Part shown: positions 11,953-30,917 of the stretch, piece by piece
Position numbering within the stretch: the first letter of the stretch is position 1
How the letters are laid out: every line of letters begins with the position of its first letter
From: Candidatus Saccharimonadota bacterium
GTDB lineage: Bacteria; Pseudomonadota; Alphaproteobacteria; CAJXXZ01; 1604HC
Length of the DNA: 32,000 nucleotides
NCBI RefSeq assembly: GCF_008189285.1
Contig: NZ_CP043315.1
Location: 390,001-422,000 of the forward strand
Reading direction: 5' to 3'
Notes under the pieces: generated by a model
The model's database searches: none
What the model was told of the DNA's origin: nothing
What the model saw: the letters and a program-made list of their open reading frames with translations, nothing else
Position numbers and translations under genes: made by a program

Positions 11953-12127
11953 ATCGCAAAATTATCTTTTAGGTAACTTGCGCAACAAATACTACTACGA
12001 CTAGTGTTTGTTCATTATGAGCAAATTAGTATTTCTGCATTCGCAGATTTACTGTTCAATTATTTCTTTTTTTAGTTTATTAATATTCATACTTAATACA
12101 GCAAAGAAATTCTTACGCAAAAATTTC

Positions 12128-12332
12128 TATAATTTCTTTCTATAATTTCTTTCTATAATTTCTTTCTATAATTTCTTTCTATAATTTCTTTCTATAATTT
12201 CTTTCTATAATTTCTTTCTATAATTTCTTTCTGTTATTTCTTTCTGTTATTTCTTTCTGTTATTTCTTTCTGTTATTTCTTTCTGTTATTTCTTTCTGTT
12301 ATTTCTTTCTGTTATTTCTTTCTGTTATTTCT
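12128..12332. repeat. 13-bp tandem array in two homogeneous blocks: 8 x tataatttctttc, then 7 full plus 1 partial x tgttatttctttc
   Basis: Counted directly. Variant A fills 12128-12231 (8 x 13 = 104 bp). Variant B fills 12232-12322, with a partial copy to 12332. The variants differ at unit positions 2 and 4 (tAtAa to tGtTa). There are no spacers. Confidence 0.95.
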
Positions 12333-12605
12333 ATTGTAAATTTTATGCATGAAATAACGTGCAACATAAATCCAAGAATTAAACAGATCTCTAGAAAATC
12401 TCAAATACATAATCATAGTGTTAGATTTTCTTGAACAGTATGTCTAATAAAATACCATGCAATATAGTCTTTATTTACTCTTAATCTCTATTGTTTGTTT
12501 TGTTAAAATATTAAAAAAGCATTAAATTATCTATTTTCATATACGATTTTTTTTTGTATCATTACTCTGTACTATTATTTAGTGTTCTTTTTGAAAGGGG
12601 AAAAA

Positions 12606-13253
12606 ATGAATAAAAAACTTTTATTTGCAACTTTAATTTCTTTGTCTAACCAAGCATTCGCAGGAAGCTTTGCTGGTTCATTCGGTTTTGGAGCAACGGC
12701 TCAAAAAACCACATTGGAAGCTGGCATAAAAAACACTATATTTGCATTCAAAGAAGATGGAAACAAAGGGTATTTCGCAGGAAAAGCTCTAGTTTCATTG
12801 GGAATGAAAAAAGGATCTTCATTCTTTGGAGTAAAACTTTCAGCTTCATTGATGAGCGACAAGAAAAACCTCATTAATCATAATGCTAATGAAAAATTTA
12901 TTAATTCAAAATCTAATTTTGCTGCTCATGTTGGCCCAGAATTCGGATATCAAATAAACAATAAGTTTTCTGTGTGTTATGCTATTTTGCTTGCTTATAA
13001 AAACATGAAAATCAAGAATAAAGAAATAAAAATTAAGAAAGAGTACCAATGTGGATTCGGTGCAACTGTTGCAGCTTTCTACAACATCACTAAAATATTC
13101 CAAATTGGACTTGAGCATGGAGTTGATTTCATGATGAAGAAAGAAAATGCTTTTGACAATCAATCAGACAAGAAGGTTAAAGAAGAAGCCAGTGTTAAGA
13201 GCAATTTTACTCCCCATGCATCAGTAATTGCTAAAATCTCTTTTGGCAAATAA
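12606..13253 (+). CDS. outer-membrane beta-barrel / surface antigen family protein, paralogue 2
   Basis: It has the same signal peptide, RBS and 5' leader as paralogue 1. The ORF track starts at a GTG at 12582, but the ATG at 12606 aligns with the start of paralogue 1. Conserved blocks are GNKGYFAGKALVSLGMKKGSSFFGVKLSASLMSDKKNL and PHASVIAKISFGK; the middle region differs. Confidence 0.6.
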   Translation: MNKKLLFATLISLSNQAFAGSFAGSFGFGATAQKTTLEAGIKNTIFAFKEDGNKGYFAGKALVSLGMKKGSSFFGVKLSASLMSDKKNLINHNANEKFINSKSNFAAHVGPEFGYQINNKFSVCYAILLAYKNMKIKNKEIKIKKEYQCGFGATVAAFYNITKIFQIGLEHGVDFMMKKENAFDNQSDKKVKEEASVKSNFTPHASVIAKISFGK

Positions 13254-13312
13254 ATCGCATGCATCAAAATTATATGCATTTACTATAAAATATATATAAT
13301 TTAAAATTCATT

Positions 13313-14023
13313 ATGAACCCAATAGCATTTTCAATATTTTCTTTCGATATCACATGGTATGGAATTTCTTATTTTATATCTTTTGTTTCTATAAATCATT
13401 TTACAGTTAGGAAGTTATCAAGCAAATATCCAGAAAAACAAATAGAACAAATCATGTCATTTTCTTTCTTTGGAATGATAGTTGGAGGAAGGTTAGGCTA
13501 TGTGATATTGTATGATTTTCAAAATTTACTTAATTTTAAGGAAATAATTGCAGTTTGGAATGGTGGAATGGCAGCTTATGGAGGGTTTATTGGAGGAATT
13601 ACATTTTTATATATCAGGTCAAAAATTTTAAAAGTTAAAATAAATGATATTTTAAATGCAATTTCACTTTATATCCCTATCGCTCTTTTCTTTGGAAGGA
13701 TAGCAAATCACATAAACAATGAAATACCAGGCAGAGAATTATTTGGAATGTATCATCATGTTATTTTATACAGCATTTTTCTTGAAGGAATGTTTCTGTT
13801 TATATTGATTAATTTTAAGAATTATTTCTCAATATTGCAAAAAATATCAGAAAGTAATTTATTTTTTATTTCCTATGGATCAATAAGAATCTTCCTTGAT
13901 TTCTTTAGAGCAACAGAATCATCCATGTTTTATTATTTTACGTATGGACAATTATTTGGATCAATAATGATTGTTATAGGATTATTAAGATCGATTAAAT
14001 TATGCACTTATCGATTAAATTGA
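13313..14023 (+). CDS. lgt: prolipoprotein diacylglyceryl transferase Lgt
   Basis: ITWYGISYFISF, GGRLGYVILYD, WNGGMAAYGGFIGG and FGRIANHINNEIPG match the conserved Lgt blocks in a polytopic membrane profile. Confidence 0.85.
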   Translation: MNPIAFSIFSFDITWYGISYFISFVSINHFTVRKLSSKYPEKQIEQIMSFSFFGMIVGGRLGYVILYDFQNLLNFKEIIAVWNGGMAAYGGFIGGITFLYIRSKILKVKINDILNAISLYIPIALFFGRIANHINNEIPGRELFGMYHHVILYSIFLEGMFLFILINFKNYFSILQKISESNLFFISYGSIRIFLDFFRATESSMFYYFTYGQLFGSIMIVIGLLRSIKLCTYRLN

Positions 14024-14631: not shown

Positions 14632-15966
14632 TTAATCATTGTTCATAGTTGCTTGCTCTCTTATCCAAGCATGAACTTGGTTAATATGAGCAAATTTAAA
14701 CACCTTCATATCATGAGATAATTCAGATCCTTTTGGAATGCAAGCTGAATTAAATCCTAACTTTTCTGCTTCTTTCAATCTTTGATCAACATGTGAGATA
14801 GGTCTTATTTCACCAGATAATCCAATTTCTCCAAATGCAATGCAATCATTAGGAATAGCAATCTTGTACCACGAAGAAAGCAAAGACATGGCAACAGCTA
14901 AATCTGAAGCAGGTTCTAATAATCTAATTCCTCCCACAATATTTAAATAAATATCTTTCCCAGAAACAATAATCTTACATTGATTTTCCAAAACAGCGCA
15001 AATCATAGCTAGTCTCTGAACATCCCACCCAACAACTGCTCTTCTTGGATTTTGCAAGTAAGAATTTGAGATTAATGATTGAATTTCTACTAATAACGGC
15101 CTACTTCCTTCAACTGCAGGGAAAATGCAAGATCCATGTATAACAGATCTATTTTTTAAGAATGATTTCGATGCATTATCAACAGGGATTAATCCCTTGT
15201 CTCTCATTTCAAATATTCCCATTGAGTTGGTAGCGCCAAATCTATTTTTAATTGATCTCAAAATTCTCAGAGAATCAGATCCTTCAAAATACAAAACAGT
15301 ATCAACCATATGCTCTAGCACTTTTGGCCCTGCAATCATTCCATCTTTGTTGACATGACTAATAATTATCAAAGGAATATTTCTATTTTTTGCCCATTGA
15401 ATTAATTTGTTTCCACAAATCCTAACCTGCGCAACACTTCCTGGAGTTGTTTCAGAATACCCATCATACATTGTTTGTATGGAATCTATCATAACAATTC
15501 CAGGATCAGTATTATCAAGAGTGTAAAGAATTTGCTCTAAATTTGTTCCATAAGCACATTTTAAATTTTTCAATTCAAGCTTTAATCTATTTGCACGAAC
15601 TTTAATTTGCTCAATTGACTCTTCTCCAGAAACATAAACAACGCTTTTTTCTTTGAAAGCAGCGCTAATTTGCAACAGCAACGTAGATTTTCCAATTCCT
15701 GGATCTCCACCTATCAGAATCACAGAACCTAAAACAATTCCTCCGCCACAAACATAATCAAATTCAGAAATTTCGGTTTGAAATCTAGTTACCGGCTTTG
15801 AATCTCCAGTTAAAGATTGTAATTCTAATTGATTGACCGACCTGTTCTCGACAACATTTTCAATAATGCTATTCCAAGATCCACAGGCATCACATTTCCC
15901 TGTCCATTTTGCATAAAAAGCCTGACATTCTTTGCAGGCAAACTTAGCTGCTTTAGATTTACTCAT
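14632..15966 (-). CDS. radA: DNA repair protein RadA (Sms)
   Basis: It has an N-terminal zinc finger (CKECQAFYAKWTGKCDACGSW), Walker A (GGDPGIGKSTLLLQ), the KNRFG motif and a Lon-like C-terminal domain (GEIGLSGEIRPI). 444 aa. Confidence 0.92.
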   Translation of the reverse strand: MSKSKAAKFACKECQAFYAKWTGKCDACGSWNSIIENVVENRSVNQLELQSLTGDSKPVTRFQTEISEFDYVCGGGIVLGSVILIGGDPGIGKSTLLLQISAAFKEKSVVYVSGEESIEQIKVRANRLKLELKNLKCAYGTNLEQILYTLDNTDPGIVMIDSIQTMYDGYSETTPGSVAQVRICGNKLIQWAKNRNIPLIIISHVNKDGMIAGPKVLEHMVDTVLYFEGSDSLRILRSIKNRFGATNSMGIFEMRDKGLIPVDNASKSFLKNRSVIHGSCIFPAVEGSRPLLVEIQSLISNSYLQNPRRAVVGWDVQRLAMICAVLENQCKIIVSGKDIYLNIVGGIRLLEPASDLAVAMSLLSSWYKIAIPNDCIAFGEIGLSGEIRPISHVDQRLKEAEKLGFNSACIPKGSELSHDMKVFKFAHINQVHAWIREQATMNND

Positions 15967-16305: not shown

Positions 16306-17256
16306 TTACTGCAAAATCGAAAGTGATTCCAATTCTTTCAAATTACTTATCTCGTGAGCATTATATACATAGCAATTAGAGCTCAACTTTTTAAGACTTG
16401 AAAATCTTAAAATCTGATTAGCTTCAATATTTACATCCTCAGAATCCATATCAAGCTCTTGCAACCCTTCTGGCAATAAACCTAAGATATCTGTATCGTG
16501 TAACCCTTCATTAGCAAGATCTGAATATTTAAAATTAATGCTAGCAGAAGTAATTACACTGCTAAGCTTTTGAAGCGCATCTACTTGATCAAAATGCTCT
16601 TCAGTGGATACCATTCTGCTGCTGATATGAAACTTGTTGAATTTAAATTTTCCTATTTCATCGACCATGGCTATATAACATTTGTCTTCTAGGGAGGAAT
16701 CAGCAACATGTGGAAGATGCGCATTAAACTCATCAACATTATAACAATTAAAATGTTTCATACAAAGCAAAAACAACAATTGATTTTTTTCTATTGATTT
16801 TCGCATAATATCATCATTAGGATTAAATTTATTCACATACTTCAAAAGATCTTCCATGTATGGATTATCATCTGTCAATCTAATATAATTTATATCTATA
16901 GCAATTTTTATATCATCCATTGAATTTCTATCTAAATCACCATGTATATTCTCAATATAATTTAAAAACTGTGTTGTGCTTTTCTCTACTAATTCAGAAC
17001 CACTGATAAGAGCAAGCATGTCTATTCCTGTATTTTCTACATCAATATCATGCTCAAAGCATTTGTTATTATTTTTATATATAACATGCACATATGACAA
17101 AACTTCTAAAATACTATTGTTAAACTCTCCAATGCTTTGCATGTAATCGATTAATTTATAATCTGATTCACATTCAACATCTGATCCTACCGCATGCGTA
17201 TTAATTAAAATCGCTGAGCAAAATATCATCTCTTTAAATAATTTTATAAATCTCAT
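16306..17256 (-). CDS. secreted LRR-like family protein, diverged third member (probably truncated)
   Basis: It has a hydrophobic N-terminus (MRFIKLFKEMIFCSAILINTHAVG). It shares the family block NQLLFLLCMKHFNCYNVDEFNAHL (compare NQLIYLSCMDYCSDYNEDLTYHI and NQFIYLSCIGYCSDYNEDLTYHI). The C-terminal end is L-rich (LKKLSSNCYVYNAHEISNLKELESLSILQ). Confidence 0.5.
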   Translation of the reverse strand: MRFIKLFKEMIFCSAILINTHAVGSDVECESDYKLIDYMQSIGEFNNSILEVLSYVHVIYKNNNKCFEHDIDVENTGIDMLALISGSELVEKSTTQFLNYIENIHGDLDRNSMDDIKIAIDINYIRLTDDNPYMEDLLKYVNKFNPNDDIMRKSIEKNQLLFLLCMKHFNCYNVDEFNAHLPHVADSSLEDKCYIAMVDEIGKFKFNKFHISSRMVSTEEHFDQVDALQKLSSVITSASINFKYSDLANEGLHDTDILGLLPEGLQELDMDSEDVNIEANQILRFSSLKKLSSNCYVYNAHEISNLKELESLSILQ

Positions 17257-17282: not shown

Positions 17283-17691
17283 GCTAATAAAGCCCTTACA
17301 GCATTTATAAAATTAAATATAATAACGCTAAATTAAACATAGTAACTCTATAATATTTAATAAAATTAGATGAAATAAATTAACACCAAACTAAAATTAA
17401 CAAAAAAACCTTGCAGTATTTGCAAATTAGATATAATAGATAAATTAAAAATATAGTTCAAATAATATTTATAAAATTATATATAACAACTAATATGTAA
17501 ATTAAAATTACAAAACCCTTACAATACTTATAAATTAAATACAGCAACTCTAAATTAAATAGCAATTCTACAACATTTAGCAAAATTAGATGCAATAAAT
17601 TAACAGCATAAATTAAAATTACAAAACCCTTGCAATACTTATAAATTAAATACAGCAACTCTAAATTAAATAGCAATTCTACAACATTTAG
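17283..17691. repeat. about 112-bp tandem repeat array: two near-identical copies preceded by about two degenerate copies
   Basis: taaattaaaattacaaaaccctt(a/g)caatacttataaattaaatacagcaactctaaattaaatagcaattctacaacatttag occurs at 17497 and at 17609, a period of 112 bp. Recognisably related but decayed copies lie at about 17283-17496 (cccttacagcatttataaaattaaat...; ccttgcagtatttgcaaattagat...). Confidence 0.8.
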
Positions 17692-18465: not shown

Positions 18466-18708
18466 AACATCCTCCTATATTTATAATGAGCATACAAAAG
18501 ACCAGTAAATATCTTATTAATGAATGCCTTACAAGAAAATATTATACAAAATTACTATATAAATCAATAAAATAATCATATTTTTTAAATATTACAAACA
18601 ATCTCGGATAAATGTCATAAATAACACTAGGCATAGAAATCAAATAAACAAATTATCACTTTCACATAATGTATTTATCATTTACAATATCTCTTAAGGA
18701 ATCTAAAT

Positions 18709-20478
18709 ATGAATACGCCAAGAAATATATCAAAAAACGTTGAGTTAGCTCCAAGAAGCGATGAATTAATCGAGAGTTTATTTCAACTTGCTAGTGAAAA
18801 AAATTTAAATACCACTCTATTATTTGAAATTGTTGAAGATTCTATAAGAGAGGTTCTCGCAAGAACTAAGGGAGATATACCTATAGATGTCAAAATTGAT
18901 ATTGATAACAAAACTATATGTATTTATGCAATCAAAACCATAGTTGAAGATGAACCTCAAGACATATACGAGATCTCTTTAGAAGAAGCGTTAAAAAGCG
19001 ATCCAGATGCAGAAATTGATGGTCAAGCTAGAGAATTAATTGGAACTGGATTTTCATCTATGCCTTTCATGAGGACATCTATTAATGCTGTAAGAAAATT
19101 ACTGCAAGAAAAAATTATGATTTTGGAAAAGGAAGCAGAATTCGATACATTTTCTGAGAAAAAAAATACCATGATATCTGCAAGGGTAAAAAGCATATCA
19201 TTTGGAAATATAATCTTAGATATAAAGGGAGGAGAAGGATATATGCATTCTTCTGAAATCATTCCTGGAGAAACATTTAAGATTAATCAAGAAATCAAAG
19301 CTTATATATATCAAGTAGAAGAAAATCAAAAAGGACCTCAGGTCATGTTATCAAGAAAGCACCCAGGAATGCTTGAATATTTGTTTGATGAAAATGTTCC
19401 CGAAATTGGAGATAAGATATCCATAAGAGCAATTGCAAGAGAAGCTGGAAGTAAGTCAAAAGTTGCTGTGACTTCTGAAGATCCTGATATAGATCCAATT
19501 GGATCATGCATAGGAAAGAATGGAGACAGAATCAAAGCTGTAATGAGAGAGTTAAGCAATGAAAAAATAGATATAATTAATTGGTCTGATGATCTTATAA
19601 CTCTAGTTATAAATGCTATATATCCTGCTGAAATTGTTAAAGTTGTTGTTAAAGATGAAAATGATATAGAACTAGTAATAAAAGATGATAATATGCATAT
19701 CGCAATCGGAAGAGATGGTCAAAATGTTAGATTGGCTAGAAAATTAACTAAATGCAAAATAAAAATATCATCAGAAACAGAATATAAAGCAGAAGAATTA
19801 AGAATCGCGAATAAAGCTAGAGAAGAATTTAAAGAAATTGGAATGAACGATGATGATATAGAATTGTTTATTGAAAATGGAATTCTATCATGTAACGCTA
19901 TAGTGGAAAATAATCCAGATGAAATAAAAGAAATTGAAGGAATTTCTTTGAATAATGAAGAAATGGAAGATTTAATACACAAAGCAAATGAAAAATGCAT
20001 TGCTAATTATACAAAAATTGCAACTGAATTGGAGAGTAAAATTGACTCCCCAGATGATAGAATCACTATTGAAGAAATAGCCTCTCTTGCTCAAAATGGA
20101 ATACTTACTAATGAAGATGTTGCTTATATGGACACATATGACATGATAGATATTATAGGTAATAAATTTAGCAAGTATGATGTAGATGAAATCATAATGA
20201 ATTTCAGAAAAGATTTAGGAATAATTGACGAATACTTCAGAGAAGATGAAGGATCTGATGATAAATCTGACGAAAATACATCAGAAGATGGATCTTATGA
20301 TGAAGATGGTAATTTTATCAGCTCCGCAGAGAAGTCAGAAGAAGGCAGATCAAATGAGCCTGATTCATTTGATGAAAATGAGTCATCTGATGAAGAAAAA
20401 ACTGAAAATTCTCCATTAAATGAAGAGAAATCTGATGAACATAAAAATCCATCTGAAAATCCATCTTTAGACAATTAG
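18709..20478 (+). CDS. nusA: transcription termination/antitermination factor NusA with a long acidic C-terminal extension
   Basis: It has an S1 region (ISARVKSISFGNIILDIKGGEGYMHSSEIIPGE), KH1 (SCIGKNGDRIKAVMRELSNEKIDII) and KH2 (AIGRDGQNVRLARKLTKCKI). The 589-aa length includes an approximately 80-aa Asp/Glu/Ser-rich tail. Confidence 0.9.
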   Translation: MNTPRNISKNVELAPRSDELIESLFQLASEKNLNTTLLFEIVEDSIREVLARTKGDIPIDVKIDIDNKTICIYAIKTIVEDEPQDIYEISLEEALKSDPDAEIDGQARELIGTGFSSMPFMRTSINAVRKLLQEKIMILEKEAEFDTFSEKKNTMISARVKSISFGNIILDIKGGEGYMHSSEIIPGETFKINQEIKAYIYQVEENQKGPQVMLSRKHPGMLEYLFDENVPEIGDKISIRAIAREAGSKSKVAVTSEDPDIDPIGSCIGKNGDRIKAVMRELSNEKIDIINWSDDLITLVINAIYPAEIVKVVVKDENDIELVIKDDNMHIAIGRDGQNVRLARKLTKCKIKISSETEYKAEELRIANKAREEFKEIGMNDDDIELFIENGILSCNAIVENNPDEIKEIEGISLNNEEMEDLIHKANEKCIANYTKIATELESKIDSPDDRITIEEIASLAQNGILTNEDVAYMDTYDMIDIIGNKFSKYDVDEIIMNFRKDLGIIDEYFREDEGSDDKSDENTSEDGSYDEDGNFISSAEKSEEGRSNEPDSFDENESSDEEKTENSPLNEEKSDEHKNPSENPSLDN

Positions 20479-20594
20479 AATCTTTATTTTATTAAAATCC
20501 TAATTCTAAAAAATTAAATTGTATTTTAAATCATATATTTAAATTTAATTAATTCTGATTTGCTATCGATTGCAAGATCTAATATAATCAATAT

Positions 20595-21959
20595 ATGAAT
20601 ATACTTAAATCAACTTTAACTTCATTTGTATTGTCATCAGGCTGCTCACATGCAGTAAGTAATTTTCAATTCAAGGAATTTGACCACAATGCAATATGCG
20701 TACTTTCATGTACTTACAAAATTGTGCAGGATAAAAAACTTAAACATATTACTATAACTGAAGATATTGATATGGAAGATATTGATATGGAAGGCGATAA
20801 AGACAGTCTTATTAAATATATCAGCACAATATCTGAAACAGAACTAACAGAACAAAGTGGTTTATCAGAAATAAAAGATGCGCTTATGCTAAGTGCTAGC
20901 TCAATTGAAGATGCATATATTAGAGAGCTTGCAGAAGAGTTATGCGTTCTCCAAGCATCAAATGAAACAGAAAGACATCACAGACATTTAAGTCCATTAA
21001 TACCCAAATCTGCCAATCAATTGATCTATTTGTCATGTATGGATTATTGTTCAGATTACAATGAAGATTTAACTTATCATATCAAAAATGCCTTATTTTA
21101 TTTAGGATCAATTGCCAGTATATTATATAGCACACACGATGTTATGCATGGAATAGGGCAAGATTTCTTAAAAATAATAGCTCAAAATTCTTTAAAATTA
21201 ATAAGTAGATGTAGTTTTGAAAATTCAAGAATAGTGATAAGTGATATTGGCGCAAGCTTTAATGAAATGGAGCGAATTATTGACAATTTCTCATCAGTCA
21301 ATAATGCAGCTGTGTCTTTGCGCAAAGAAAGCATTGACTTGGCATTAGCCAAGATTCCAAACGCAAGCACTCTAATATTTTACAACTGCATTGATGTGCT
21401 AGCAAATACTCAATTAAATGATTTACAAGAATTAATAATGGATAATGTAGATTCATTCGAAATAGATGCTATAAAAATTCCTAATGTAAAAACATTGCGT
21501 ATAGAGAAAAATATGCGCCATCAATTTAAAGATGCGCCCAATTTATGCATACCAAGCTTTGTTTGGGATCTTGCAAATCTAGAGAATTTAGAAGACAGAT
21601 CTGGCATAATAAGAACAACAAACATTTCAAAAGACAATGGATTAAAATCACTTCTATTAAGCTCTGTGTCAGAAATTAAAGGATTAAACAATCTAAAATC
21701 ATTAGAAAAATTCAGCTTTAGAAGCGCTAGTGAAATCACATTAGGAGAAGATATAAAATCAGATTCTGTAAAGGATTTATGCATATTTATACAAGAAAGC
21801 ATAACAAATCTAGATGAAATTCTTACATACTTTCCTAATTTAGAAAAACTAACCATGCGTTATGAATCAGTTCGTAATGAAGATATGGCTAATTACACGT
21901 CTAGAATTTTAAATGAAAAAGGCATATCAGCTGATTGTAAACAGGGATATAGCTTATAA
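20595..21959 (+). CDS. secreted LRR-like family protein, paralogue A
   Basis: It has a signal-like N-terminus (MNILKSTLTSFVLSSGCSHA|VS). The first ~120 aa are near-identical to the ORF at 27414-28802. The C-terminal half has L/N-rich ~22-25-aa periodic segments (IPNVKTLRIEKN, LANLENLEDRSG, LNNLKSLEKFSF, FPNLEKLTMRY). Confidence 0.6.
   Translation: MNILKSTLTSFVLSSGCSHAVSNFQFKEFDHNAICVLSCTYKIVQDKKLKHITITEDIDMEDIDMEGDKDSLIKYISTISETELTEQSGLSEIKDALMLSASSIEDAYIRELAEELCVLQASNETERHHRHLSPLIPKSANQLIYLSCMDYCSDYNEDLTYHIKNALFYLGSIASILYSTHDVMHGIGQDFLKIIAQNSLKLISRCSFENSRIVISDIGASFNEMERIIDNFSSVNNAAVSLRKESIDLALAKIPNASTLIFYNCIDVLANTQLNDLQELIMDNVDSFEIDAIKIPNVKTLRIEKNMRHQFKDAPNLCIPSFVWDLANLENLEDRSGIIRTTNISKDNGLKSLLLSSVSEIKGLNNLKSLEKFSFRSASEITLGEDIKSDSVKDLCIFIQESITNLDEILTYFPNLEKLTMRYESVRNEDMANYTSRILNEKGISADCKQGYSL
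20700..20912. repeat. left copy of a 213-bp near-identical inverted repeat (the partner is 28485-28697)
   Basis: By eye, gtactttcatgtacttacaaaattgtgcaggataaaaaactt...gctagctcaattgaagat equals the reverse complement of 28485-28697 except for 2 mismatches (ataactgaagat versus ataattaaagat). The flanks are clearly more diverged. Confidence 0.85.
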
Positions 21960-23052
21960 TTGCTGCGCCATATTTATACAGCACAATAAAAAAGCCTAAC
22001 AAGTTGTAATTCTATTATCAATTCAAAAATCTTCAAATTATTATAAAGCTAAATTTCTCTCTTTAAGCTCAAAGATATTTGAGTTCAAGAATCTTCAAAT
22101 TAATATTTTCTATACAGCTTCAAAAGTATCTTAGTTATTTGTCAGGCATACTTTTTATAATAACAAAATTCAAGACAAAATCCCTTTAATTGATAAAATC
22201 TGCAACATGAGCAAATGAAACAAATTATATTTCATAAGATTTTGCACATTGGGTAAAAAGCATCTTCATAAATATTTCTAAAAAGCTATTGCCTACATGC
22301 ATTTCAAATCAGTTTCTATAGGGCTGATCAATTATACAAAACAATTGAAACGGTATTATGAATCTTTTTCTAATGACTTTTTATTAATATAAATTATTTA
22401 TATTATTTCAACTTTAAGCATTTGCATGCAATTAGTCTTAAATCTTTCATCTAATATTTCTGATATTATTTATAATATCTCTCATTGATTATGAGTTTAT
22501 ATAAAAGAAACTTTGCCTAAATTAATTTCAATGCTATTTCTTTAATGATAAAATATAATAAATATTAAGATTGATTGATATTATAAAATAACCAATCAAA
22601 ATAAACTGATAAATCTGATCTATATATTTCAATTCCATATTTCTTAGCTTTTAAACTATGGAGCAAAACTATCATTTGCACAAATTAATCGATGAGTTTT
22701 TATCATTCAAATAATTTAAGAAGATTGGTCTAACTAATTTTCTTAAATATATTAAAACTAAATAATTTTATTTGTAACTTTTGTTAATTATAAATTTTGA
22801 TTAAAAGATTAATTCAATTAAGATAATAAAATGATAAGCATACAATAATGCTCATTAAAAAATTAAGTTTATTGAATTTTCAAATTATATGAAAAACTTG
22901 CAAATTGAGTGTTTGTTTTTTCTAATCAACTGCCCTGTTTTTTAATAAAAGTATTATTTTACGAATATTATCTTATGATACTATTGATGAATATCAATCA
23001 ATTCAGATTGATAAATTTGATTTTAAGTTATTTGTAAATTTGTTAAAGCGAA

Positions 23053-23214
23053 TTATTTGAGTTTTTTCTCTTTAACAACAACATGTTTTCTGAGTTTTGA
23101 GCTATACTTTTTTAATTCAAGCTTTCTACCCTTCATTCCACCAGTTTTTTTACAAACTCCGAAATACCCATCACCAACTAGAGCGATTAATCCAAGATCA
23201 TTCTTTTTTGCCAT
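23053..23214 (-). CDS. rpmG: 50S ribosomal protein L33
   Basis: Below the ORF-track size cutoff. My translation is MAKKNDLGLIALVGDGYFGVCKKTGGMKGRKLELKKYSSKLRKHVVVKEKKLK (53 aa). The pattern MAKK...rLeLkKYspklRKHvlfKExK is the L33 signature. It lies directly downstream of tRNA-Phe on the same strand. Confidence 0.85.
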   Translation of the reverse strand: MAKKNDLGLIALVGDGYFGVCKKTGGMKGRKLELKKYSSKLRKHVVVKEKKLK

Positions 23215-23236
23215 AAAAACCCCTTAATTTAAGAAA

Positions 23237-23309
23237 TGCCTAGAGCCGGAATCGAACCAGCGACACGTAGATCTTCAATCTACTGCTCTACCGACTGAGC
23301 TATCCAGGC
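23237..23309 (-). tRNA. tRNA-Phe (anticodon GAA), with no encoded CCA
   Basis: The reverse complement reads GCCTGGATAGCTCAGTCGGTAGAGCAGTAGATTGAAGATCTACGTGTCGCTGGTTCGATTCCGGCTCTAGGCA. The 7-bp acceptor stem has one G-T pair. The D arm is AGCTCAGTCGGTAGAGC. The anticodon stem is GTAGA/TCTAC with loop TTGAAGA. The T arm contains GGTTCGATTCC. Confidence 0.92.
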
Positions 23310-23374
23310 AACCTAAGCATTATAATCTAAAATTATAAAAACTTCTATAGATTTGCAAGAAAATTGCAAAACTA

Positions 23375-26299
23375 TTATGCGCTGTATACTCCAGCATCAA
23401 CCAACACTTCATGCATAATCTTCAAAGTGTGAACTTCTTTTATATTATACTTGTTGTCAGATCCAGCAACATTAATGCTAAACTTGCTCTTCATAAAATT
23501 ATGGAACTTACTATCAACTGTATCCATAACCAAAACACTCTTCTGAGAAGCGCTTGGCAAATTCTTCAAAAGATATTCATACATAGAATTCACACGCTTA
23601 TCTTGTAATTCTTCATCTTTCAAGCCTTCAATGGATGAATTTCCACTATTTATGTAGCTTATCAAGGAATCAGTTTTATCAAACTTCCCCACCAAGTCAT
23701 CAATGCTAATCTTACAGCACATCAAAACTAATCCATCATTATTTTTATCTCCATTTCTCAACCATTCTTTGAAGTATGGATTAATTAATGGGCTAACTAT
23801 GTCTCCATTATTATTTTCAATAACCATTTTTGAATGATGCTCACTATTTTTATTCACATAAAACAATAGGTAAGGAATAGTATTATCATCACGCTTTGTA
23901 ACATGATCATACAATGCTGGATTCATTTCTTTCAAAATCTTTCCGCAATCAGATTTCATGAGATTTTCAGCCTTAATTTGGAATAAAGAGTTATTGTTAG
24001 AATCATAATGTCTCAAACCATATCTTCCTTTCCCTTTTTGACCATCTGCATATATAACTTTAGCCAAAGTTTCTTTCTTTTCTTGTCCCAAAATCATTTG
24101 AGCTATAAACTTCTTATTGCTTTTTGTTGAAGCGTCATTATTAATTTGATTTCTAACATAATTGATTGTTTCATCGCTAATGTTGAATTTATTTTTAATA
24201 GCATTCAAAGCATTTTCAAAATCTGATTTTTCTAAGATATCAACCATTTCATTCAATTTTAATTCTACAGTTTTAGATTCAACTGCAAAGTCATTGCCAG
24301 TATTTTTTGTAGAGCTACTTAGAGCCTGTTTCATTAATCCTGACAAAGAATCTTTTTGAATATCATTTTGCTCATTAGCAGTTTTAGAAACTACTTTTTT
24401 AACATTTCCATTTCCTCTTTTTCTCTTTCCAGCCAATTTCTTGCTATTTTCTTTTGTAGTTTTAGAGGGCGCCAAAGATGATTTTTCCCCTTCAGGAAGT
24501 GTTTGCAATCTATTTGCTGCTGCTTTTAATCTTTTTGTAACAGTCTCATCAATTTTTACTTTCTCTTCATCTTGCTTGACATTCACCAATGGAGCAGGCT
24601 CTGCATTTGTTGATCTCAAAACATTTTGTTGATCAGCAAGAAGAGCTTTTTGCTCTCTTACTTTTTTTTCAGTTGCTAATAATGGAGCAGATTTTGCATT
24701 TGTTGACCTTAAAGTATTTTTTTCACTAAATAATTTGCTAAGCATAGGATTTCTCTTCAAGCCTGAGAAATGATGATCAGGATCAACTAAAGAACCTCTC
24801 TCCAACTCTGCAGGATTCTGATTTTTGACTTCAACCAAAGTTTCTTCGTCTGATGAATCAAGTCTCTCTTCTCCAGTTTGCGAATCAATCAAAATTTCTT
24901 TGTCTGATGAATCAAGTTTTTCTTCTTCAGTTTGTGGGTCAACCAAAATTTCTTCATCTGATAAATGAGATTCTAGCTCAGCTGCATCGCTAGCTTTTTG
25001 AGGAGTTCTTGGAGTTCTAGATCCAACCTCTATTGCTGACTCGTCTGTATTTCCTTGCAATACATCTAACATGAATTTATCTTTTAGCTGATCTTCTTTT
25101 TCTGAATCAGAATTTCTATTAGATACATCGGTAGAAGATGCAAATGCAACTCCATAACCCAAAGGAGAAGCTTCTGACTGAAGTTCTGACAAATCAGAAA
25201 CAACTAGAGATGTAGGCTGTCTTTCTGTGGTAGGTACTTCTATCAAATCACCAACAATTCGAGGTATAGGCTTTGATAATGAATTCAATGCTTTTGATCT
25301 TGATACTAAACCATCTTGCAAGTCTTGAGCCTCATCTTTTTCTGAAAAACCTAAATCTGCTTTTTGTTCTTCATGTGAGGATAACTGCGTTTCTATAGAT
25401 CTTTTATCTTCTACTTGAGGAGCGACTTGACTTGAGATCTCTGCAATTGGATTCGCGTTCCTAGCTTCAGCCAAGCTCTCTGCAATTGGATTCGCATCCT
25501 TAATCTCAGCTAAACTCTCTGAAATAATTGAAGGTTGAGATGGAGACAACACAACTCTCTTGGGAGCTTTTCCATCTTTTTGTGAATCACCAGCAAATGA
25601 TACATTTTTTGGAGATGTTGCAAATGCAGATCCACTTCTACTTCTAGCCGGACTTCCAGCTGGAGTTGTAACTTTAGAGCTTGCTAAACTACTTCTAGCC
25701 GATCTTCTTGCAAGCTTTTCCTTCTCCTCTTTTATATTCTCATCGCTTATAGCAAATCCAGAACCCTTTAATATACCTACTATCTCATCTAGTATATTTC
25801 CTATAATTCCATTGTCATAGCTTCCTAAATCAATTGCTTTGCTTTCATTGGTTAGTTTTTTCTCTGCATTCTTATAAAAAATCTGCCCATCCATCTTCGC
25901 AGACAATTTAGAAAAATCAAACCCAGTAATATTAAAATAATAATTTGCTTTGCTTAGCCCGGCAATGAGTTTTTTTGAATCAATTTTGCTTAATTTGCCC
26001 ATCTTATCAACAGAAAACCATGAACTACTATTTTGCAATTTGTTTTCCATAGAAAAATAAAAATTATTCTTTTGATCCCCAAGAACTATTTTTCCAAATA
26101 ATAAATCTTTTTCTTGATCTCTTATAGCCAACTGTATTCCTTTAAGCAAGTTTGCCAAATTATCTCTAACTGGCGCAGCTTTGCTATAAAACATATCTTG
26201 AGCTACACTACTTGCAGTTTTTTCAACCTTAGCAGGCATTGTGTTTGTATTTGAAATAGATAGCAAGCAAGCTAGCAGAATCAATGATTTTTTATTCAT
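23375..26299 (-). CDS. large secreted protein of unknown function (974 aa) with a repeat-rich, probably disordered centre
   Basis: It has a signal peptide (MNKKSLILLACLLSISNTNTMPA). The central ~450 aa is Ser/Glu/Asp/Pro-rich with internal repeats: SLAEIKDANPIAE/SLAEARNANPIAE, EEILVDPQTEEEKLDSSDKEILIDSQTGEERLDSSDEETLVEV, and NTLRSTNAKSAPL.../NVLRSTNAEPAPL. I recognise no known domain in the folded-looking N- and C-terminal parts. Confidence 0.7.
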   Translation of the reverse strand: MNKKSLILLACLLSISNTNTMPAKVEKTASSVAQDMFYSKAAPVRDNLANLLKGIQLAIRDQEKDLLFGKIVLGDQKNNFYFSMENKLQNSSSWFSVDKMGKLSKIDSKKLIAGLSKANYYFNITGFDFSKLSAKMDGQIFYKNAEKKLTNESKAIDLGSYDNGIIGNILDEIVGILKGSGFAISDENIKEEKEKLARRSARSSLASSKVTTPAGSPARSRSGSAFATSPKNVSFAGDSQKDGKAPKRVVLSPSQPSIISESLAEIKDANPIAESLAEARNANPIAEISSQVAPQVEDKRSIETQLSSHEEQKADLGFSEKDEAQDLQDGLVSRSKALNSLSKPIPRIVGDLIEVPTTERQPTSLVVSDLSELQSEASPLGYGVAFASSTDVSNRNSDSEKEDQLKDKFMLDVLQGNTDESAIEVGSRTPRTPQKASDAAELESHLSDEEILVDPQTEEEKLDSSDKEILIDSQTGEERLDSSDEETLVEVKNQNPAELERGSLVDPDHHFSGLKRNPMLSKLFSEKNTLRSTNAKSAPLLATEKKVREQKALLADQQNVLRSTNAEPAPLVNVKQDEEKVKIDETVTKRLKAAANRLQTLPEGEKSSLAPSKTTKENSKKLAGKRKRGNGNVKKVVSKTANEQNDIQKDSLSGLMKQALSSSTKNTGNDFAVESKTVELKLNEMVDILEKSDFENALNAIKNKFNISDETINYVRNQINNDASTKSNKKFIAQMILGQEKKETLAKVIYADGQKGKGRYGLRHYDSNNNSLFQIKAENLMKSDCGKILKEMNPALYDHVTKRDDNTIPYLLFYVNKNSEHHSKMVIENNNGDIVSPLINPYFKEWLRNGDKNNDGLVLMCCKISIDDLVGKFDKTDSLISYINSGNSSIEGLKDEELQDKRVNSMYEYLLKNLPSASQKSVLVMDTVDSKFHNFMKSKFSINVAGSDNKYNIKEVHTLKIMHEVLVDAGVYSA

Positions 26300-26542
26300 A
26301 TATCACTCCTCATTTTTTACAATTCTAATGATTAATTATTTATAAAAAATAAAAATACAATTAATTAATTATTAATTATGCAAAAATCTAAATAAAATTT
26401 GCTTCAATTTTATCTCTATATTAATGAAATGCTATCTTTAATTTTTATCATTTATTTATTGCATTTTTTCAAATTTCATGTATAATGCAAAATTAACTTG
26501 CAATTTCTTACTCTACAATGTGAAAATAACTTTGGAGGAAAA

Positions 26543-26752
26543 GTGAATGAAGAATTTATTGAAAACCTAAAAGACATTTATAAGAAAGCAACAAAAAAGA
26601 ATTTACTAAGCGTTGCTCTTAAATCACAAGAAATGATAGCAAGGTATTATGGGTATTTTTCAAAAAATACAAAAAAAGATATTTCAATGTTAAATCATAA
26701 TGAATTGAGTGAAATCTTAGGTGAAATCAAGAAGATGATAGGAGATAATTAA
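26543..26752 (+). CDS. small hypothetical protein (69 aa from a GTG start; the track ORF starts at a TTG at 26498)
   Basis: GGAGG lies 4 nt upstream of the in-frame GTG at 26543, and tataat is at 26481-26486. The segment LLSVALKSQEMIARYYGYFSKN faintly recalls the C-terminal helix of phage small terminase subunits, but this is unverified. Confidence 0.35.
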   Translation: MNEEFIENLKDIYKKATKKNLLSVALKSQEMIARYYGYFSKNTKKDISMLNHNELSEILGEIKKMIGDN

Positions 26753-26795
26753 ATGCGAGACTCCTAAAAACAATATAATCTTCCAAATTTGCTAA

Positions 26796-27302
26796 ATGAA
26801 TATCATAATAACAACAATGCATATAATTTTACATCTACCAAATTGGGACACTTTCCTGCAAACACAAATCAATCAGTCAAATTGCACAATAAAAACGTGG
26901 TCTCCAAATTTGGAAAAGAAAAGCCATCTTAATCCTTACCAAGTTGTACAAGAAATATTTTCAAAAATTAATGATGATGGATATTTTTTCCTTAGCTTTA
27001 TAAAGTGTGGAAGATTTTATTTTTCCCCGCCAGAAAATGATCAAGAAGCGTGCGAAGTAATTAAAAAGATGGAAGGAAGACGAACTAGAATATATTACGC
27101 TCTCAGACAACCTAATGCAAAATACAAAATATCCGAAGAATGGATCATGTTGAAACGAATGAATGATTCAGAAAGACTGCTAACAGCTCCAAAACTTAAG
27201 AATTATCAGGAATTTTTAAGATTATCTGGACAATCTGTAATATTAAAATCAGGATCAACAAGAAACCCATTCAATTTATTGCATAATCATAATATTATAT
27301 GA
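26796..27302 (+). CDS. hypothetical protein (168 aa)
   Basis: This is an open frame only. No motif is recognised and no clear RBS was seen. It sits 43 nt after the preceding small ORF. Confidence 0.3.
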   Translation: MNIIITTMHIILHLPNWDTFLQTQINQSNCTIKTWSPNLEKKSHLNPYQVVQEIFSKINDDGYFFLSFIKCGRFYFSPPENDQEACEVIKKMEGRRTRIYYALRQPNAKYKISEEWIMLKRMNDSERLLTAPKLKNYQEFLRLSGQSVILKSGSTRNPFNLLHNHNII

Positions 27303-27413
27303 CATGTCATCATCAGATTAAATTATCACAAAAACTGCAAATACAACTCAAATTACCAAAGGAAACCTAATTATCTTATAATATTATGCAAAACATTAAT
27401 CACAATTTATATT

Positions 27414-28802
27414 TTAAAATAACTCATAGTTAATTTCATCAACTTCTACTTCCACACCTTGTTTTGCTAGCTCAATAACTCCGTAATCTATTGGATATTG
27501 CTCATATTTCCCTAGCCCATGATAGCGTATGGTAAGATTTTTTAACTTAGGAAAATGCGTCAAAGCATAGTACAGATTTGTTACTGATCGATTTGTTGCT
27601 ATATCTATATATAAATCAGTCACAGAGCTTGATTTAAGATCTATTCCTAATGTAACTTGATTGATTGTTTTGAAATACAATTTTTTCCTTGCAATCCTTT
27701 TTTCTTCAATTTCTTCAATTTCTTCATCTGTTAGACTTTCAATTTCTTCATCTTCTTCATCTATCATATCTTCTATTCTTACAATCTCTTCATCTTTATT
27801 TTCAACTATCAGATTCTCTAAGTTTTTAAGATCCCAAATAAAATTAGGTATTTTATACAAATCGACATTAAAATCATCTGATTCATCATCATCATCATCA
27901 TACTCAACAGGAAAATCAAGCATTATATTAACCGTCTCAACATTAGGTATTTTATCGGAGCATATTTCATGTGATCTTGCATGTCTAATTGTTAGTTTCT
28001 TCAAACTATCTAGTTGAACATCTATTTTACATAAGCAGTCATAAAGAGTTAAAATTTTGATATTCGGAAACTTGCTTACAATAATATCAATATCTGCCTG
28101 ACTTACTATTTCTAGTTCGTCGATTGATGAGAAATTTGCCATAATTCTATTTATTTGATCGATATTTGCATTAGGATCATTTACAATTATTTTTGAATTT
28201 TCAAAACTACATCTACTTATTAATTTCAGAGAATTTTGAGCTATCTCTTTCAATAATGGCTCTTTTGTATCATTAAGAATATCTGCAATTTCCTTTAATT
28301 CAAATGAAGCATTTTTGATATGATAAGTTAAATCTTCATTGTAATCTGAACAATAACCTATACAGGATAAATAAATAAATTGATTGACAGCTTTGTGTGT
28401 TAATGCACTTAAATTTCTGTGATGCTCTTCTGGATCATTTGAGCGGAGGACACATAATTCTTCTGCAAGCTCTCTAAGATATGTATCTTCAATTGAGCTA
28501 GCACTTAGCATAAGCGCATCTTTTATTTCTGATAAACCACTTTGTTCTGTTAGTTCTGTTTCAGATATTGTGCTGATATATTTAATAAGACTGTCTTTAT
28601 CGCCTTCCATATCAATATCTTCCATATCAATATCTTTAATTATAGTAATATGTTTAAGTTTTTTATCCTGCACAATTTTGTAAGTACATGAAAGTACACT
28701 CATTGCATTATGATCAAATTCCTTGAATTGAAAATTGCTTGCTGCATTCGAATAATTCGATGATAATACAAACAATGCTAAAGCTGATTTAATAATATTC
28801 AT
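27414..28802 (-). CDS. secreted LRR-like family protein, paralogue B, with acidic insertions
   Basis: It has a signal-like N-terminus (MNIIKSALALFVLSSNYSNA|AS). The first ~120 aa are near-identical to paralogue A. It shares the internal block IAQNSLKLISRCSFENS and the motif IWDLKNLENL, and ends FPKLKNLTIRY... There are extra acidic runs (YDDDDDESDDF; EDMIDEEDEEIESLTDEEIEEIEEK). It starts 31 nt after the stop of the nlpD-like gene. Confidence 0.6.
   Translation of the reverse strand: MNIIKSALALFVLSSNYSNAASNFQFKEFDHNAMSVLSCTYKIVQDKKLKHITIIKDIDMEDIDMEGDKDSLIKYISTISETELTEQSGLSEIKDALMLSASSIEDTYLRELAEELCVLRSNDPEEHHRNLSALTHKAVNQFIYLSCIGYCSDYNEDLTYHIKNASFELKEIADILNDTKEPLLKEIAQNSLKLISRCSFENSKIIVNDPNANIDQINRIMANFSSIDELEIVSQADIDIIVSKFPNIKILTLYDCLCKIDVQLDSLKKLTIRHARSHEICSDKIPNVETVNIMLDFPVEYDDDDDESDDFNVDLYKIPNFIWDLKNLENLIVENKDEEIVRIEDMIDEEDEEIESLTDEEIEEIEEKRIARKKLYFKTINQVTLGIDLKSSSVTDLYIDIATNRSVTNLYYALTHFPKLKNLTIRYHGLGKYEQYPIDYGVIELAKQGVEVEVDEINYELF
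28485..28697. repeat. right copy of the 213-bp near-identical inverted repeat (the partner is 20700-20912)
   Basis: See the partner entry; coordinates were derived by direct comparison of the two strands. Confidence 0.85.
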
Positions 28803-28833
28803 GAGTTGAATTTACTAAGTTTATTAAAAAATC

Positions 28834-29697
28834 TCAATACCTCTTAGCGTATTCAATTTTTTCTGGATCTATATATTTTTTCCCATCCCAAATTCTTATA
28901 AAAATATTTCCGGCTGAGTAGCCTATTTTATCTCCCTGCTTAACCAAATCTCCTTTTTTCACAAAGATCTCAGCTAAATTACTATAAGTAACTAACCAGC
29001 TCAAATTACCTACATCTTTCTTTATATATATCGTATTATTAGCTTTTTCAATAAACATAACCAAGCCATCATACGGCGCAAAAATATTCCCTGTGCCTAC
29101 AACAAACACTCCATCACGCCTTTTTCCATGTCTCTGAGAAAATGGAAGAGATTTATCTATTTTTCCATTAGAAGTAGGAAACAATATGCTAGATTTATCA
29201 ATTTCTTCTTTAGGGTCATTCTTTTTATCAGTTTCCTGACCATTTTTCTTAAATTGCTCTGCAGAATCATTGTCTTTCTTGGCTTTCGCTTTGCTTTCTT
29301 TAGCATCTCCCGCAACGATTTTAATTTGCTTTTTCTTTTCAATTTCTTGATCAATCTTAATTTCTGCAAGCTCTTTATCAAGATCTTGCTTTAATTCATC
29401 ATCAATTTCATGCAATTCTTCAGTTTTTCCAAGCTTTTCCTTGTCAGATATTTGCTCGTCATCTTTATAAAGTATTTTAGCTCTCGTTTCTATTTTGGAA
29501 TAAGAAAGTTTTTGCCCTGCATTAATAATATAAGGATGCTTTAAATTATTCTTTTCTATTAGATGTTTTTTATTTATGCCATATTTTTCAGAAATTGTAT
29601 CCAATGTATCTCCTGAATCAGCCACAACAAATTTTATAGGCTTCTTTTCACATCCAAGCAAAACCAAACAAAATACATACGACGCTATTTTCAACAT
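28834..29697 (-). CDS. NlpD-like lipoprotein: LysM domain plus a degenerate LytM (M23) domain
   Basis: It has a lipobox (LVLLGC), a LysM domain (FVVADSGDTLDTISEKYGINKKHLIEKNNLKHPYIINAGQKLSY) and a Lys/Glu-rich linker. The C-terminal M23-like fold (APYDGLVMFIEK...VTYSNLAEIFVKKGDLVKQGDKIGYSAGNIFIRIWDGKKYIDP) has non-His residues at the HxxxD and HxH positions. The start overlaps the serS stop (ATGTTGA). Confidence 0.7.
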   Translation of the reverse strand: MLKIASYVFCLVLLGCEKKPIKFVVADSGDTLDTISEKYGINKKHLIEKNNLKHPYIINAGQKLSYSKIETRAKILYKDDEQISDKEKLGKTEELHEIDDELKQDLDKELAEIKIDQEIEKKKQIKIVAGDAKESKAKAKKDNDSAEQFKKNGQETDKKNDPKEEIDKSSILFPTSNGKIDKSLPFSQRHGKRRDGVFVVGTGNIFAPYDGLVMFIEKANNTIYIKKDVGNLSWLVTYSNLAEIFVKKGDLVKQGDKIGYSAGNIFIRIWDGKKYIDPEKIEYAKRY

Positions 29698-30917
29698 TTA
29701 AAACTCTCCATTCCAACATAAGATTGCAAAACATTCGGTATATGCAAAATTCTTTCATCTTTATTATAATAATTCTCAAGTATGGCCGCCAATGTTCTTC
29801 CTACAGCCAATGCAGAACAATTCAAAGTATGAGCAAAATACTTTTTTCCTTCATGAGCATATCGTGTATTCATTCTTCTAGCTTGGAAATCTCCACAATT
29901 GGAACAACTAGAAATCTCAACATATTTTCTAACTCCAGCCATCCACACCTCTATGTCAAATTGTCTTTTCGCTGTAAATCCAATATCTCCTGAGCAAATT
30001 TCCACAATTCTGTAAGGGAGCTGCAGCTTTTGAAGCAATTTCTCCGCATGATTCAACATAAACATATGCTCATCCTCTGATTTATCTTGTGTTGTGATTG
30101 AAACAATTTCTACTTTCTGAAACTGATGCAATCTAATCAATCCTTTTGTGTCTCGCCCAGCCGACCCTGCTTCTTTTCTAAAACAATGACTCAAAGCAGT
30201 AAATCTCATAGGAAATTCATCAGATTTTGCCAACCTTCCTTGAACAACATTTATCAAAGGAACTTCTCCGGTAGGAATAAGCGCTTTATCTTGCATTACA
30301 AATAAATCATCTCTAAATTTAGGCAACTGACCTGAATTATACAATGCAGATTCCTTAACAATAAAAGGAACTGAAATTTCATCAAAACCATTATCTATGT
30401 TAAAATCTAACATCCAATTAGCAATTGATCTTTCTAATTTTGATAAAATACCTTTCATCATAGCAAATCTAGATCCAGAAATATCAGCAGAATTAATCCA
30501 CAAACCCATCTCATCCATTATTTCATCATGAGAAACATTTCTTTCCTCTGGATTTCCCCACTTCTTAATTTCCACATTATCATTATCATCTTTGCCGCTT
30601 GGAGTATGGTCAGAAATAATATTTGGAACAGTTGATAAAATACTATTCAACTCCTCGCTAATTTCTTTTTCTTCCTGCTCTAGTTTTTGAATTTCTGCTT
30701 TTATTCTTTTGCCCTCTTCAATATCTCTGTTTTTAGCAGCGATTTTTGATTTTTGCCTCAAATTATTCAACTCATTAACTGCGCTACGCCATTTTTTATC
30801 TGCATCCAATATTTTTTCTGATTGTGCATTAGAACCACGATCAATAAAATTCTTATCTAACTTATCTGGATTTTCTCTAATCCAATTTAAATCCAACATA
30901 TAATCTAAATCTAACAT
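29691..30917 (-). CDS. serS: seryl-tRNA synthetase; the true start may be the second Met at 30899
   Basis: It has an N-terminal coiled-coil arm (MLDLNWIRENPDKL...). The class II core motifs are FRDDLF, LIPTGEVPL, RFTALSHCFRKEAGSAGRDTKGLIRLHQFQKVE, FDIEVWMAG...EISSCSNCGDFQARR and LNCSALAVGRTLAAILENY. Confidence 0.92.
   Translation of the reverse strand: MLDLDYMLDLNWIRENPDKLDKNFIDRGSNAQSEKILDADKKWRSAVNELNNLRQKSKIAAKNRDIEEGKRIKAEIQKLEQEEKEISEELNSILSTVPNIISDHTPSGKDDNDNVEIKKWGNPEERNVSHDEIMDEMGLWINSADISGSRFAMMKGILSKLERSIANWMLDFNIDNGFDEISVPFIVKESALYNSGQLPKFRDDLFVMQDKALIPTGEVPLINVVQGRLAKSDEFPMRFTALSHCFRKEAGSAGRDTKGLIRLHQFQKVEIVSITTQDKSEDEHMFMLNHAEKLLQKLQLPYRIVEICSGDIGFTAKRQFDIEVWMAGVRKYVEISSCSNCGDFQARRMNTRYAHEGKKYFAHTLNCSALAVGRTLAAILENYYNKDERILHIPNVLQSYVGMESFKC

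Follow-up and report, generated by a model that had tools for sequence, protein, structure and literature searches.

Probable recent gene conversion in an inverted pair of lineage-specific paralogues of the protist endosymbiont Candidatus Cytomitobacter indipagum

The tufA and tufB genes of Salmonella and E. coli are inverted duplicates kept homogeneous by gene conversion that depends on RecA; inversions between them occur rarely. In Helicobacter pylori, gene conversion forms chimeras of babA/babB and of other hop paralogues; for bab the exchange has been documented experimentally and alters adhesin expression. The sap system of Campylobacter fetus undergoes a mostly RecA-dependent inversion between the conserved 5' regions of opposed sapA homologues; a single promoter lies inside the invertible element, and inversion selects the homologue that is expressed. 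Here we describe two paralogous genes, A and B, which lie in opposite orientation in a 32,000-nucleotide (nt) stretch (the window, whose own positions are used throughout) of the genome of Candidatus Cytomitobacter indipagum, and which share a short core that is almost identical inside copies otherwise strongly diverged. C. indipagum lives as an endosymbiont in the cytoplasm of the marine protist Diplonema aggregatum (bioRxiv 10.1101/719211). Its genome comprises 628,024 bp, and the guanine-plus-cytosine (GC) content of the window is about 30%. Recent gene conversion best explains the identity of the core, a reading that we consider likely; A and B are an old, lineage-specific pair that would have been partly re-homogenised.

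Paralogue A (20595-21959, + strand) encodes 454 amino acids and is 100% identical to the NCBI record of the hypothetical protein FZC35_01745, while paralogue B (27414-28802, - strand; FZC35_01775) encodes 462 amino acids. The two convergent open reading frames (ORFs) specify proteins that align colinearly over 440 amino acids with 54% identity (E = 7e-145). The original prediction had described convergent paralogues with a near-identical inverted core of 213 bp and two mismatches counted by eye, and both the ORFs with their alignment and an exact count bear this out: positions 20700-20912 of A and the reverse complement of positions 28485-28697 of B, which correspond to codons 36-106 in each gene, differ at exactly 2 of 213 nt. 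These differences (given as A/B) are C/T at 20758 and G/A at 20760; they fall in adjacent codons, are both nonsynonymous, and leave exact runs of 58 nt (20700-20757) and 152 nt (20761-20912). A repeat finder placed the core within a longer pair of inverted repeats of 373 nt and 90% identity (20580-20952 / 28445-28817), and returned further inverted pairs at 20958-21115 / 28285-28442 (84%) and at 21165-21299 / 28122-28256 (77%).

The evidence that carries the interpretation comes from the synonymous sites. According to Nei-Gojobori counts, codons 1-35 differ at 12 of 20.3 synonymous sites (proportion of synonymous differences, pS, 0.59; proportion of nonsynonymous differences, pN, 0.13), whereas not one of the approximately 41.5 synonymous sites in codons 36-106 differs (pS 0.00, pN 0.012). 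Downstream of the core, pS amounts to 0.23 in codons 107-170 and to 0.46-0.69 beyond codon 170. With the gene-wide pS of 0.434, the chance of observing no synonymous difference in 41 sites is 7e-11 (binomial), and a comparison of synonymous differences between the core and its adjacent flanks gave p = 4e-6 (Fisher). A tract with near-zero synonymous divergence inside copies otherwise diverged at synonymous sites is the pattern of concerted evolution, and the value of 0 in the core as against 0.59 upstream and 0.23-0.69 downstream argues for gene conversion rather than selection at the protein level. Since synonymous sites are near saturation over most of the length, the copies themselves must be old.

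The original prediction had also read a sharp identity boundary as a sign of ongoing gene conversion. When A and B were aligned precisely, the boundary proved sharp on the 5' side, where sliding identity rises from 65-77% to 97-100% across 20650-20700 and the flank (20580-20699 in A, + strand) has synonymous sites near saturation. On the 3' side it did not: identity there declines through a graded shoulder (20913-21299 in A, + strand; partner 28122-28484 in B), ranging between 75 and 92% to about 21090, dipping at an indel, recovering in a second island at 21160-21230 and then falling to near 50%. The shoulder contains exact islands of 48 nt (21044-21091) and 34 nt (21195-21228). Conversion itself is upheld by the core pS of 0, but "ongoing" goes too far, as one genome documents at least one recent tract and not a demonstrated continuing process.

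In the sequence of events that we propose, codons 36-106 would represent the most recent conversion tract (in A on the + strand, with its partner in B on the - strand), copied non-reciprocally. Since that conversion only two substitutions would have followed, in the GC-to-AT direction; A carries C and G at these sites and B carries T and A, which would fit slight post-conversion mutation under AT pressure. Older or shorter conversion tracts probably account for the 3' shoulder with its exact islands of 48 nt and 34 nt. The machinery may be RecA acting with RecFOR in non-crossover repair, and MutSL mismatch repair may restrict tracts to sequence that is similar to begin with; RecA-dependent RecFOR and MutSL are present in the genome according to the paper describing it, while RecBCD is absent (bioRxiv 10.1101/719211). 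Among the recombination genes, a radA homologue also lies within the window. We infer the recombination pathway in this way, as well as the export and the host-facing role of A and B that are considered further below.

Several observations weigh against this interpretation or limit its reach. The comparison of the paralogues rests on one C. indipagum genome sequence, hence "recent" is a relative term and "ongoing" is unproven, and without an outgroup copy neither the direction of the tract nor the number of events can be reconstructed. The 3' gradient could partly reflect a stronger protein constraint on the N-terminal domain, and the nonsynonymous divergence (dN) also climbs along the gene, from 0.14 to 0.6-0.75. 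As regards the proteins, the predicted models have confidence values of only 45 and 43, with no match in the PDB by sequence and no significant one by fold, and the signal peptide was judged only by eye and hydropathy, the hydrophobic region being weak in A.

Purifying selection on the protein, or on a nucleotide-level element embedded in the gene, might in principle create an island of identity without any recombination, and the core does sit in the most conserved block of the protein, bordered by residues 22-35 (86% identical) and residues 107-170 (72%). Selection on a protein, however, leaves synonymous differences behind, of which the core has none and the stretch just upstream a dozen, and both differences that do occur in the core change the amino acid. 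At the nucleotide level, folding of the core gave no signal of RNA structure (z = -1.16), and the Rfam scan of the window returned a tRNA-Phe gene as its sole match, with none in the core; selection of either kind is very unlikely to have produced the island. The near-identity might alternatively be an artefact of assembly or short-read polishing that homogenised copies more divergent in reality. The C. indipagum genome was closed with Nanopore and paired Illumina reads of 125 nt at 3423x (bioRxiv 10.1101/719211). The exact run of 152 nt is longer than a single such read, and ambiguous mapping during polishing could in principle copy one allele over the other. The identity nevertheless fades gradually into uniquely mappable flanks, the two differences persist in the middle of the core, the closed hybrid assembly combines deep paired coverage with Nanopore reads, and the assembled orientation matches the synteny of relatives. 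We regard an artefact as highly improbable.

Outside the core, divergence between A and B is graded along their length. Counted by the residues of A, identity is 57% at 1-21, 86% at 22-35, 97% at 36-106, 72% at 107-170, 28-55% at 171-426 and 16% at 427-454. The two proteins are colinear to about residue 430, without any indel ahead of residue 120; the final ~28 amino acids alone cannot be aligned, and the motif TNL..LT.FP.L..LT.RY is common to both at residues 404-423. Acidic insertions are limited to B, as first noted from the sequence and now seen in the alignment. The original prediction had further proposed a shared module of ~120 amino acids, that is, a conserved N-terminal module joined to a variable C-terminal domain. 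Homology of the module holds but extends over the full length of the proteins, and the C-terminal parts, although diverged, remain colinear and retain the motif at 404-423. A and B are thus paralogous over their full length and diverge by degrees, rather than consisting of a common module attached to different domains.

Upstream of the genes, nucleotide homology between A and B begins 15 nt before the ATG, at the start of the first repeat pair (20580/28817). As had been stated, nusA and A are separated by 116 nt, and the nlpD-like gene and B by 31 nt. In both genes a -10-like hexamer ends 7 nt before the ATG (TATAAT at 20583-20588 in A, TAAATT at 28809-28814 in B). Both hexamers lie inside the 15 nt of upstream homology, in AT-rich sequence where promoter-like matches are not above shuffles; promoter-like sites numbered 64 against 74.6 expected from shuffles and terminator-like sites 4 against 4.4, hence no excess of either.

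The surroundings of the pair were compared with those in four relatives reached via NusA homologues, namely C. primus (L081), two relatives of ~620 kb represented by ENA assemblies (L082 and L084) and a 558-kb metagenome-assembled genome (L085); a separate scan of genome contigs with NusA gave nothing but distant loci of <=40% identity. In all four relatives, nusA (+), rpmG (-), tRNA-Phe (-), a gene for a large protein (-) and two small ORFs (+) occur in the same order and orientation as in C. indipagum, and they can be recognised as orthologues. These four genomes lack A and B, and tblastn found no remnant of either in the intergenic gaps. The second small ORF adjoins nlpD(-)-serS(-) within 3-66 nt in three of the four, at the site that B occupies in C. 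indipagum. Being missing from the four relatives, A and B are additions specific to this lineage, one at each edge of a conserved block; likewise, the shared orientation of the interior genes indicates that the assembled orientation is ancestral, and no fixed inversion is visible. A closer relative with a NusA 70% identical (L083, Logan SRR12358676) carries at 1667-1694 an ATG located 97 nt after the nusA stop, and the frame it opens reads MNKSKVTKF up to the end of the 1.7-kb contig. In C. indipagum, A starts at this place and on this strand, but the stretch is too short to call.

In C. indipagum, nusA (18709-20478, + strand) forms the left flank of A; in the relatives, rpmG (-) is directly next to it, with no A. 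A is followed by an AT-rich spacer (21960-23052; ~21% GC), which contains neither a convincing ORF nor any trace of a family pseudogene. Next comes rpmG (23053-23214, - strand), which encodes ribosomal protein L33 (Pfam PF00471) and has tblastn matches of 71-90% identity in the relatives, and then the gene for tRNA-Phe (GAA) (23236-23310, - strand), which adjoins rpmG in all relatives. A 974-amino-acid protein with a signal peptide (23375-26299, - strand) has a repetitive middle rich in Ser, Glu and Lys and no Pfam domain, and only its C-terminal ~310 amino acids are conserved in the relatives (26-36% identity). The rest of this protein is fast-evolving, and 54-nt tandem repeats (family D7) occur at 24831-24992. 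Two small ORFs of 84 and 168 amino acids (26498-27302, + strand) complete the interior, and the right flank of B is formed by serS and the LysM/M23 nlpD-like gene, as assigned with Pfam (28834-30917, - strand). The contents of the interior are thus as originally listed. The two small ORFs had been called orphans, a label that does not survive, as both are kept in all four relatives with tblastn identities of 41-50% and 41-52%, respectively.

As the original prediction pointed out, a crossover in the inverted core would invert the interior and swap the C-terminal parts of the two genes. The geometry is indeed such: the segment between the cores (20913-28484; 7,572 bp) would be inverted and the 3' 77% of A and B (residues 107 to the end) exchanged, with both chimeras in frame, as no indel precedes residue 120. 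The same intermediate that gives conversion, if resolved as a crossover, would flip the 7.6 kb in this manner. Inversion by crossover is a possibility raised by this geometry.

A stronger proposal is that the segment is a working switch, in which RecA crossovers repeatedly invert it within the endosymbiont population and swap the variable parts between the nusA-side and the serS/nlpD-side contexts. The arms are inverted with 152 nt of exact identity, the A5'-B3' and B5'-A3' chimeras are in frame, conversion shows that the arms do pair, and RecA is reported present (bioRxiv 10.1101/719211). Small inversions have also arisen nearby in evolution, of lgt in C. indipagum and of nlpD-serS-rplU-rpmA in C. 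primus, the latter with a breakpoint at the B junction. On the other hand, the assembled orientation is that of all four relatives. The start codons and upstream regions of A and B (20479-20594 and 28803-28833) lie outside the segment, so that a given variable part would gain no more than a different promoter context and different residues 1-35, a weak lever for phase variation. Homologies of 152-213 bp give low RecA crossover rates in model bacteria, and crossovers in the core are expected to be rare. RuvABC is named in the genome paper only for a different symbiont (bioRxiv 10.1101/719211). No recombinase domain was detected among the ORFs scanned within and beside 20595-28802. With interior genes that are conserved housekeeping or clade-specific ones and no recombinase gene, the segment does not have the make-up of a programmed invertible element, and we think a working switch unlikely. 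That, in a genome otherwise described as stable and repeat-poor, conversion and occasional crossover might act together as a recombination module is a still more doubtful extension of the same idea. The N-terminal part, serving export or anchoring, would be kept uniform, and the two divergent C-terminal halves, facing the host, would be reshuffled. If it were true, endosymbionts within one protist cell would be mixed for orientation and chimeric forms, and the pair would be a minimal, recombinase-free system of antigenic or effector variation in a protist symbiont. It is also conceivable that a staggered-break inversion left the inverted duplicates behind, one breakpoint gene having been duplicated to both ends; in Drosophila inversions, a segment with an inverted duplication at each end is the classic mark of such events. 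The block, however, is not inverted relative to the four relatives, the copies are old, with saturated synonymous divergence (dS), and no flank is shared beyond 15 nt upstream, which leaves this origin barely credible. Gene conversion between two old, diverged copies remains the preferred account of the core.

Searches for further members of the family returned A and B only. They were the sole members found in a word-index search of 5.8 billion proteins, an exhaustive hidden Markov model (HMM) search of 1.84 billion cluster representatives gave only their own cluster, a metagenome scan with the A/B alignment gave no relatives, and exact-protein look-ups of both in assembly collections gave no matches. 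A PDB sequence search with the A/B profile produced no match even at E <= 10. No third copy or pseudogene was found in the window, in the 1.1-kb spacer or, by tblastn, in the intergenic gaps of the relatives. On these sequence comparisons, A and B form a new two-member family without detectable relatives that is unique to C. indipagum. A 316-amino-acid ORF in the window (16306-17256, - strand) was tried as a third member, but it resembles the N-terminal module of A/B only weakly and not beyond the level of a control; BLASTP gave E = 0.024, hhalign a probability of 2% and Smith-Waterman z values of 2.1-2.75, compared with 1.97 for an unrelated control pair, and the candidate was rejected as unproven. 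The suggestion that the pair belongs to a polymorphic effector family is not supported by the HMM and word-index counts, with two members only, or by the C-terminal parts, which are homologous. Additionally, no cognate immunity gene was identified, the region downstream of A being the 1.1-kb spacer, with a longest ORF of 42 amino acids, and that downstream of B being the end of a conserved ORF.

The two proteins had been called similar to leucine-rich repeat (LRR) proteins from the periodicity of their sequence, and closer analysis did not confirm this call. In Pfam searches A matches LRR_4 at E = 0.0077 with 16.9 bits against a cut-off of 27 bits, with no stretch passing alone, and B has no LRR match at E <= 1. 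The motif LxxLxLxxN is not enriched relative to shuffled sequences in A (3 against 4.8 expected, p = 0.87) or in B (8 against 4.4, p = 0.066), although looser motifs of the type φPNφxxLxφ, identified by eye, recur at a spacing of ~20-25 amino acids. AlphaFold2 gave predicted local distance difference test (pLDDT) scores of 45.1 for full-length A and 42.6 for the C-terminal half; in these low-confidence models residues 1-203 are helical, and short strands follow every ~20-25 residues from residue 206. The best Foldseek matches in the PDB are LRR-containing proteins (NLRC4 and NRC2) at E 0.007-0.01 with a template modelling (TM) score of 0.15, and none reaches E <= 0.001. "LRR-like" is thus a lead and not a result, and membership of the LRR class is unproven.

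The N-termini of both proteins resemble Sec signal peptides by eye and by hydropathy, with MNI[IL]KS... followed by S-x-A, and their hydrophobic core is of moderate strength in B but weak in A (maximum Kyte-Doolittle 1.36). Each protein probably begins with a Sec-type signal peptide, continues with a helical N-terminal domain and ends in a C-terminal half built of repetitive strand/helix units. Such an architecture would suit exported proteins of a bacterium that lives free in the cytoplasm of its host. As a two-member family unique to C. indipagum that sits at the edges of a conserved block, A and B are reasonable candidates for a species-specific interaction with the host.

Other features of the window were recorded alongside. 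Genes of a type VI secretion system include tssF and tssG at 738-3385 (+) and a fusion of tssB and tssC, which encode the sheath, in one ORF of 663 amino acids (7023-9014, -), with VipA at residues 11-172, VipB at 239-538 and VipB_2 at 548-658. Directly downstream of the fusion, an ORF of 185 amino acids (6463-7020, -) has no Pfam match and might be a very divergent tube protein. Two outer-membrane beta-barrel paralogues lie in tandem (11266-11952 and 12582-13253, within 11157-13259); their nucleotide identity is block-wise 80-94%, upstream regions included, the gene is single-copy in most relatives, and a 13-nt tandem array of ~24 copies (12072-12383) separates the two. Next to them, lgt (13313-14023) lies on the + strand, its 3' end overlapping that of cvpA by 29 nt, while in all four relatives it is on the - strand and co-oriented with cvpA, which looks like a single-gene inversion. 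In C. primus, nlpD-serS-rplU-rpmA (17311-19995 in L081) is inverted relative to C. indipagum and the three other relatives, one breakpoint being the B junction. No inverted repeats were found flanking either the lgt inversion or this four-gene inversion.

A radA homologue is located at 14632-15966. Between radA and pal lie the 316-amino-acid ORF mentioned above, which has no assigned family and a signal-peptide-like start, and direct repeats of 111 nt (83 nt of them 99% identical) at 17286-17691; neither the ORF nor the repeats are detectable in any of the four relatives. In three of these radA and pal are adjacent, while L084 has two unrelated genes at that place. On the left side of the block, rimP overlaps the start of nusA in L082 (9531-10004) and L084 (9528-10004), but it is missing upstream of nusA in C. 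indipagum (18466-18708) and in C. primus, and in none of these genomes is nusA followed by infB.

George et al. (bioRxiv 10.1101/719211) report LRR proteins in diplonemid endosymbiont genomes, both scattered and close to type VI secretion genes. A and B come from the same organism and lie ~11.5 kb from tssBC, tssF and tssG, but they fall below the Pfam LRR threshold and have no detectable homology to any other protein. The finding is noteworthy mainly for being made in a minimal endosymbiont genome and in a gene family unique to one species. It indicates that homologous recombination remains active in the strongly reduced, 628-kb genome of a protist endosymbiont, which fits the published observation that RecA/RecFOR is retained by these symbionts, in contrast to many insect symbionts. 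Should the segment flip, recombinase-free variation would become readily testable in a minimal genome.

Among the systems described at the outset, the sap locus of C. fetus is similar to A and B in that opposed, conserved 5' coding regions bracket several kilobases and homologous recombination is the proposed driver. In contrast to sap, A and B point inward with their 5' ends outside the segment, and an inversion would switch neither gene on or off. The babA/babB pair shares with A and B the location of paralogues for exported or surface proteins at separate loci and the combination of a highly similar end region with a divergent remainder, so that exchange within the common region shifts variable parts from one expression context to another; A and B are, however, unrelated to the Hop family, inverted and close together, and they are known here from one assembled arrangement. 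Like tufA/tufB, they are inverted paralogues on one chromosome in which synonymous divergence has been erased non-reciprocally and in which a crossover would give an inversion. The tuf genes, however, are ancient and essential, and near-identity spans each gene in full, whereas A and B are homogenised over only 213 nt of a fast-evolving orphan gene, with arms 7.6 kb apart rather than hundreds of kilobases. Altogether, by analogy with these systems, the concerted evolution of this inverted pair would be an ordinary and known process, comparable to that of tufA/tufB or of the bab genes.

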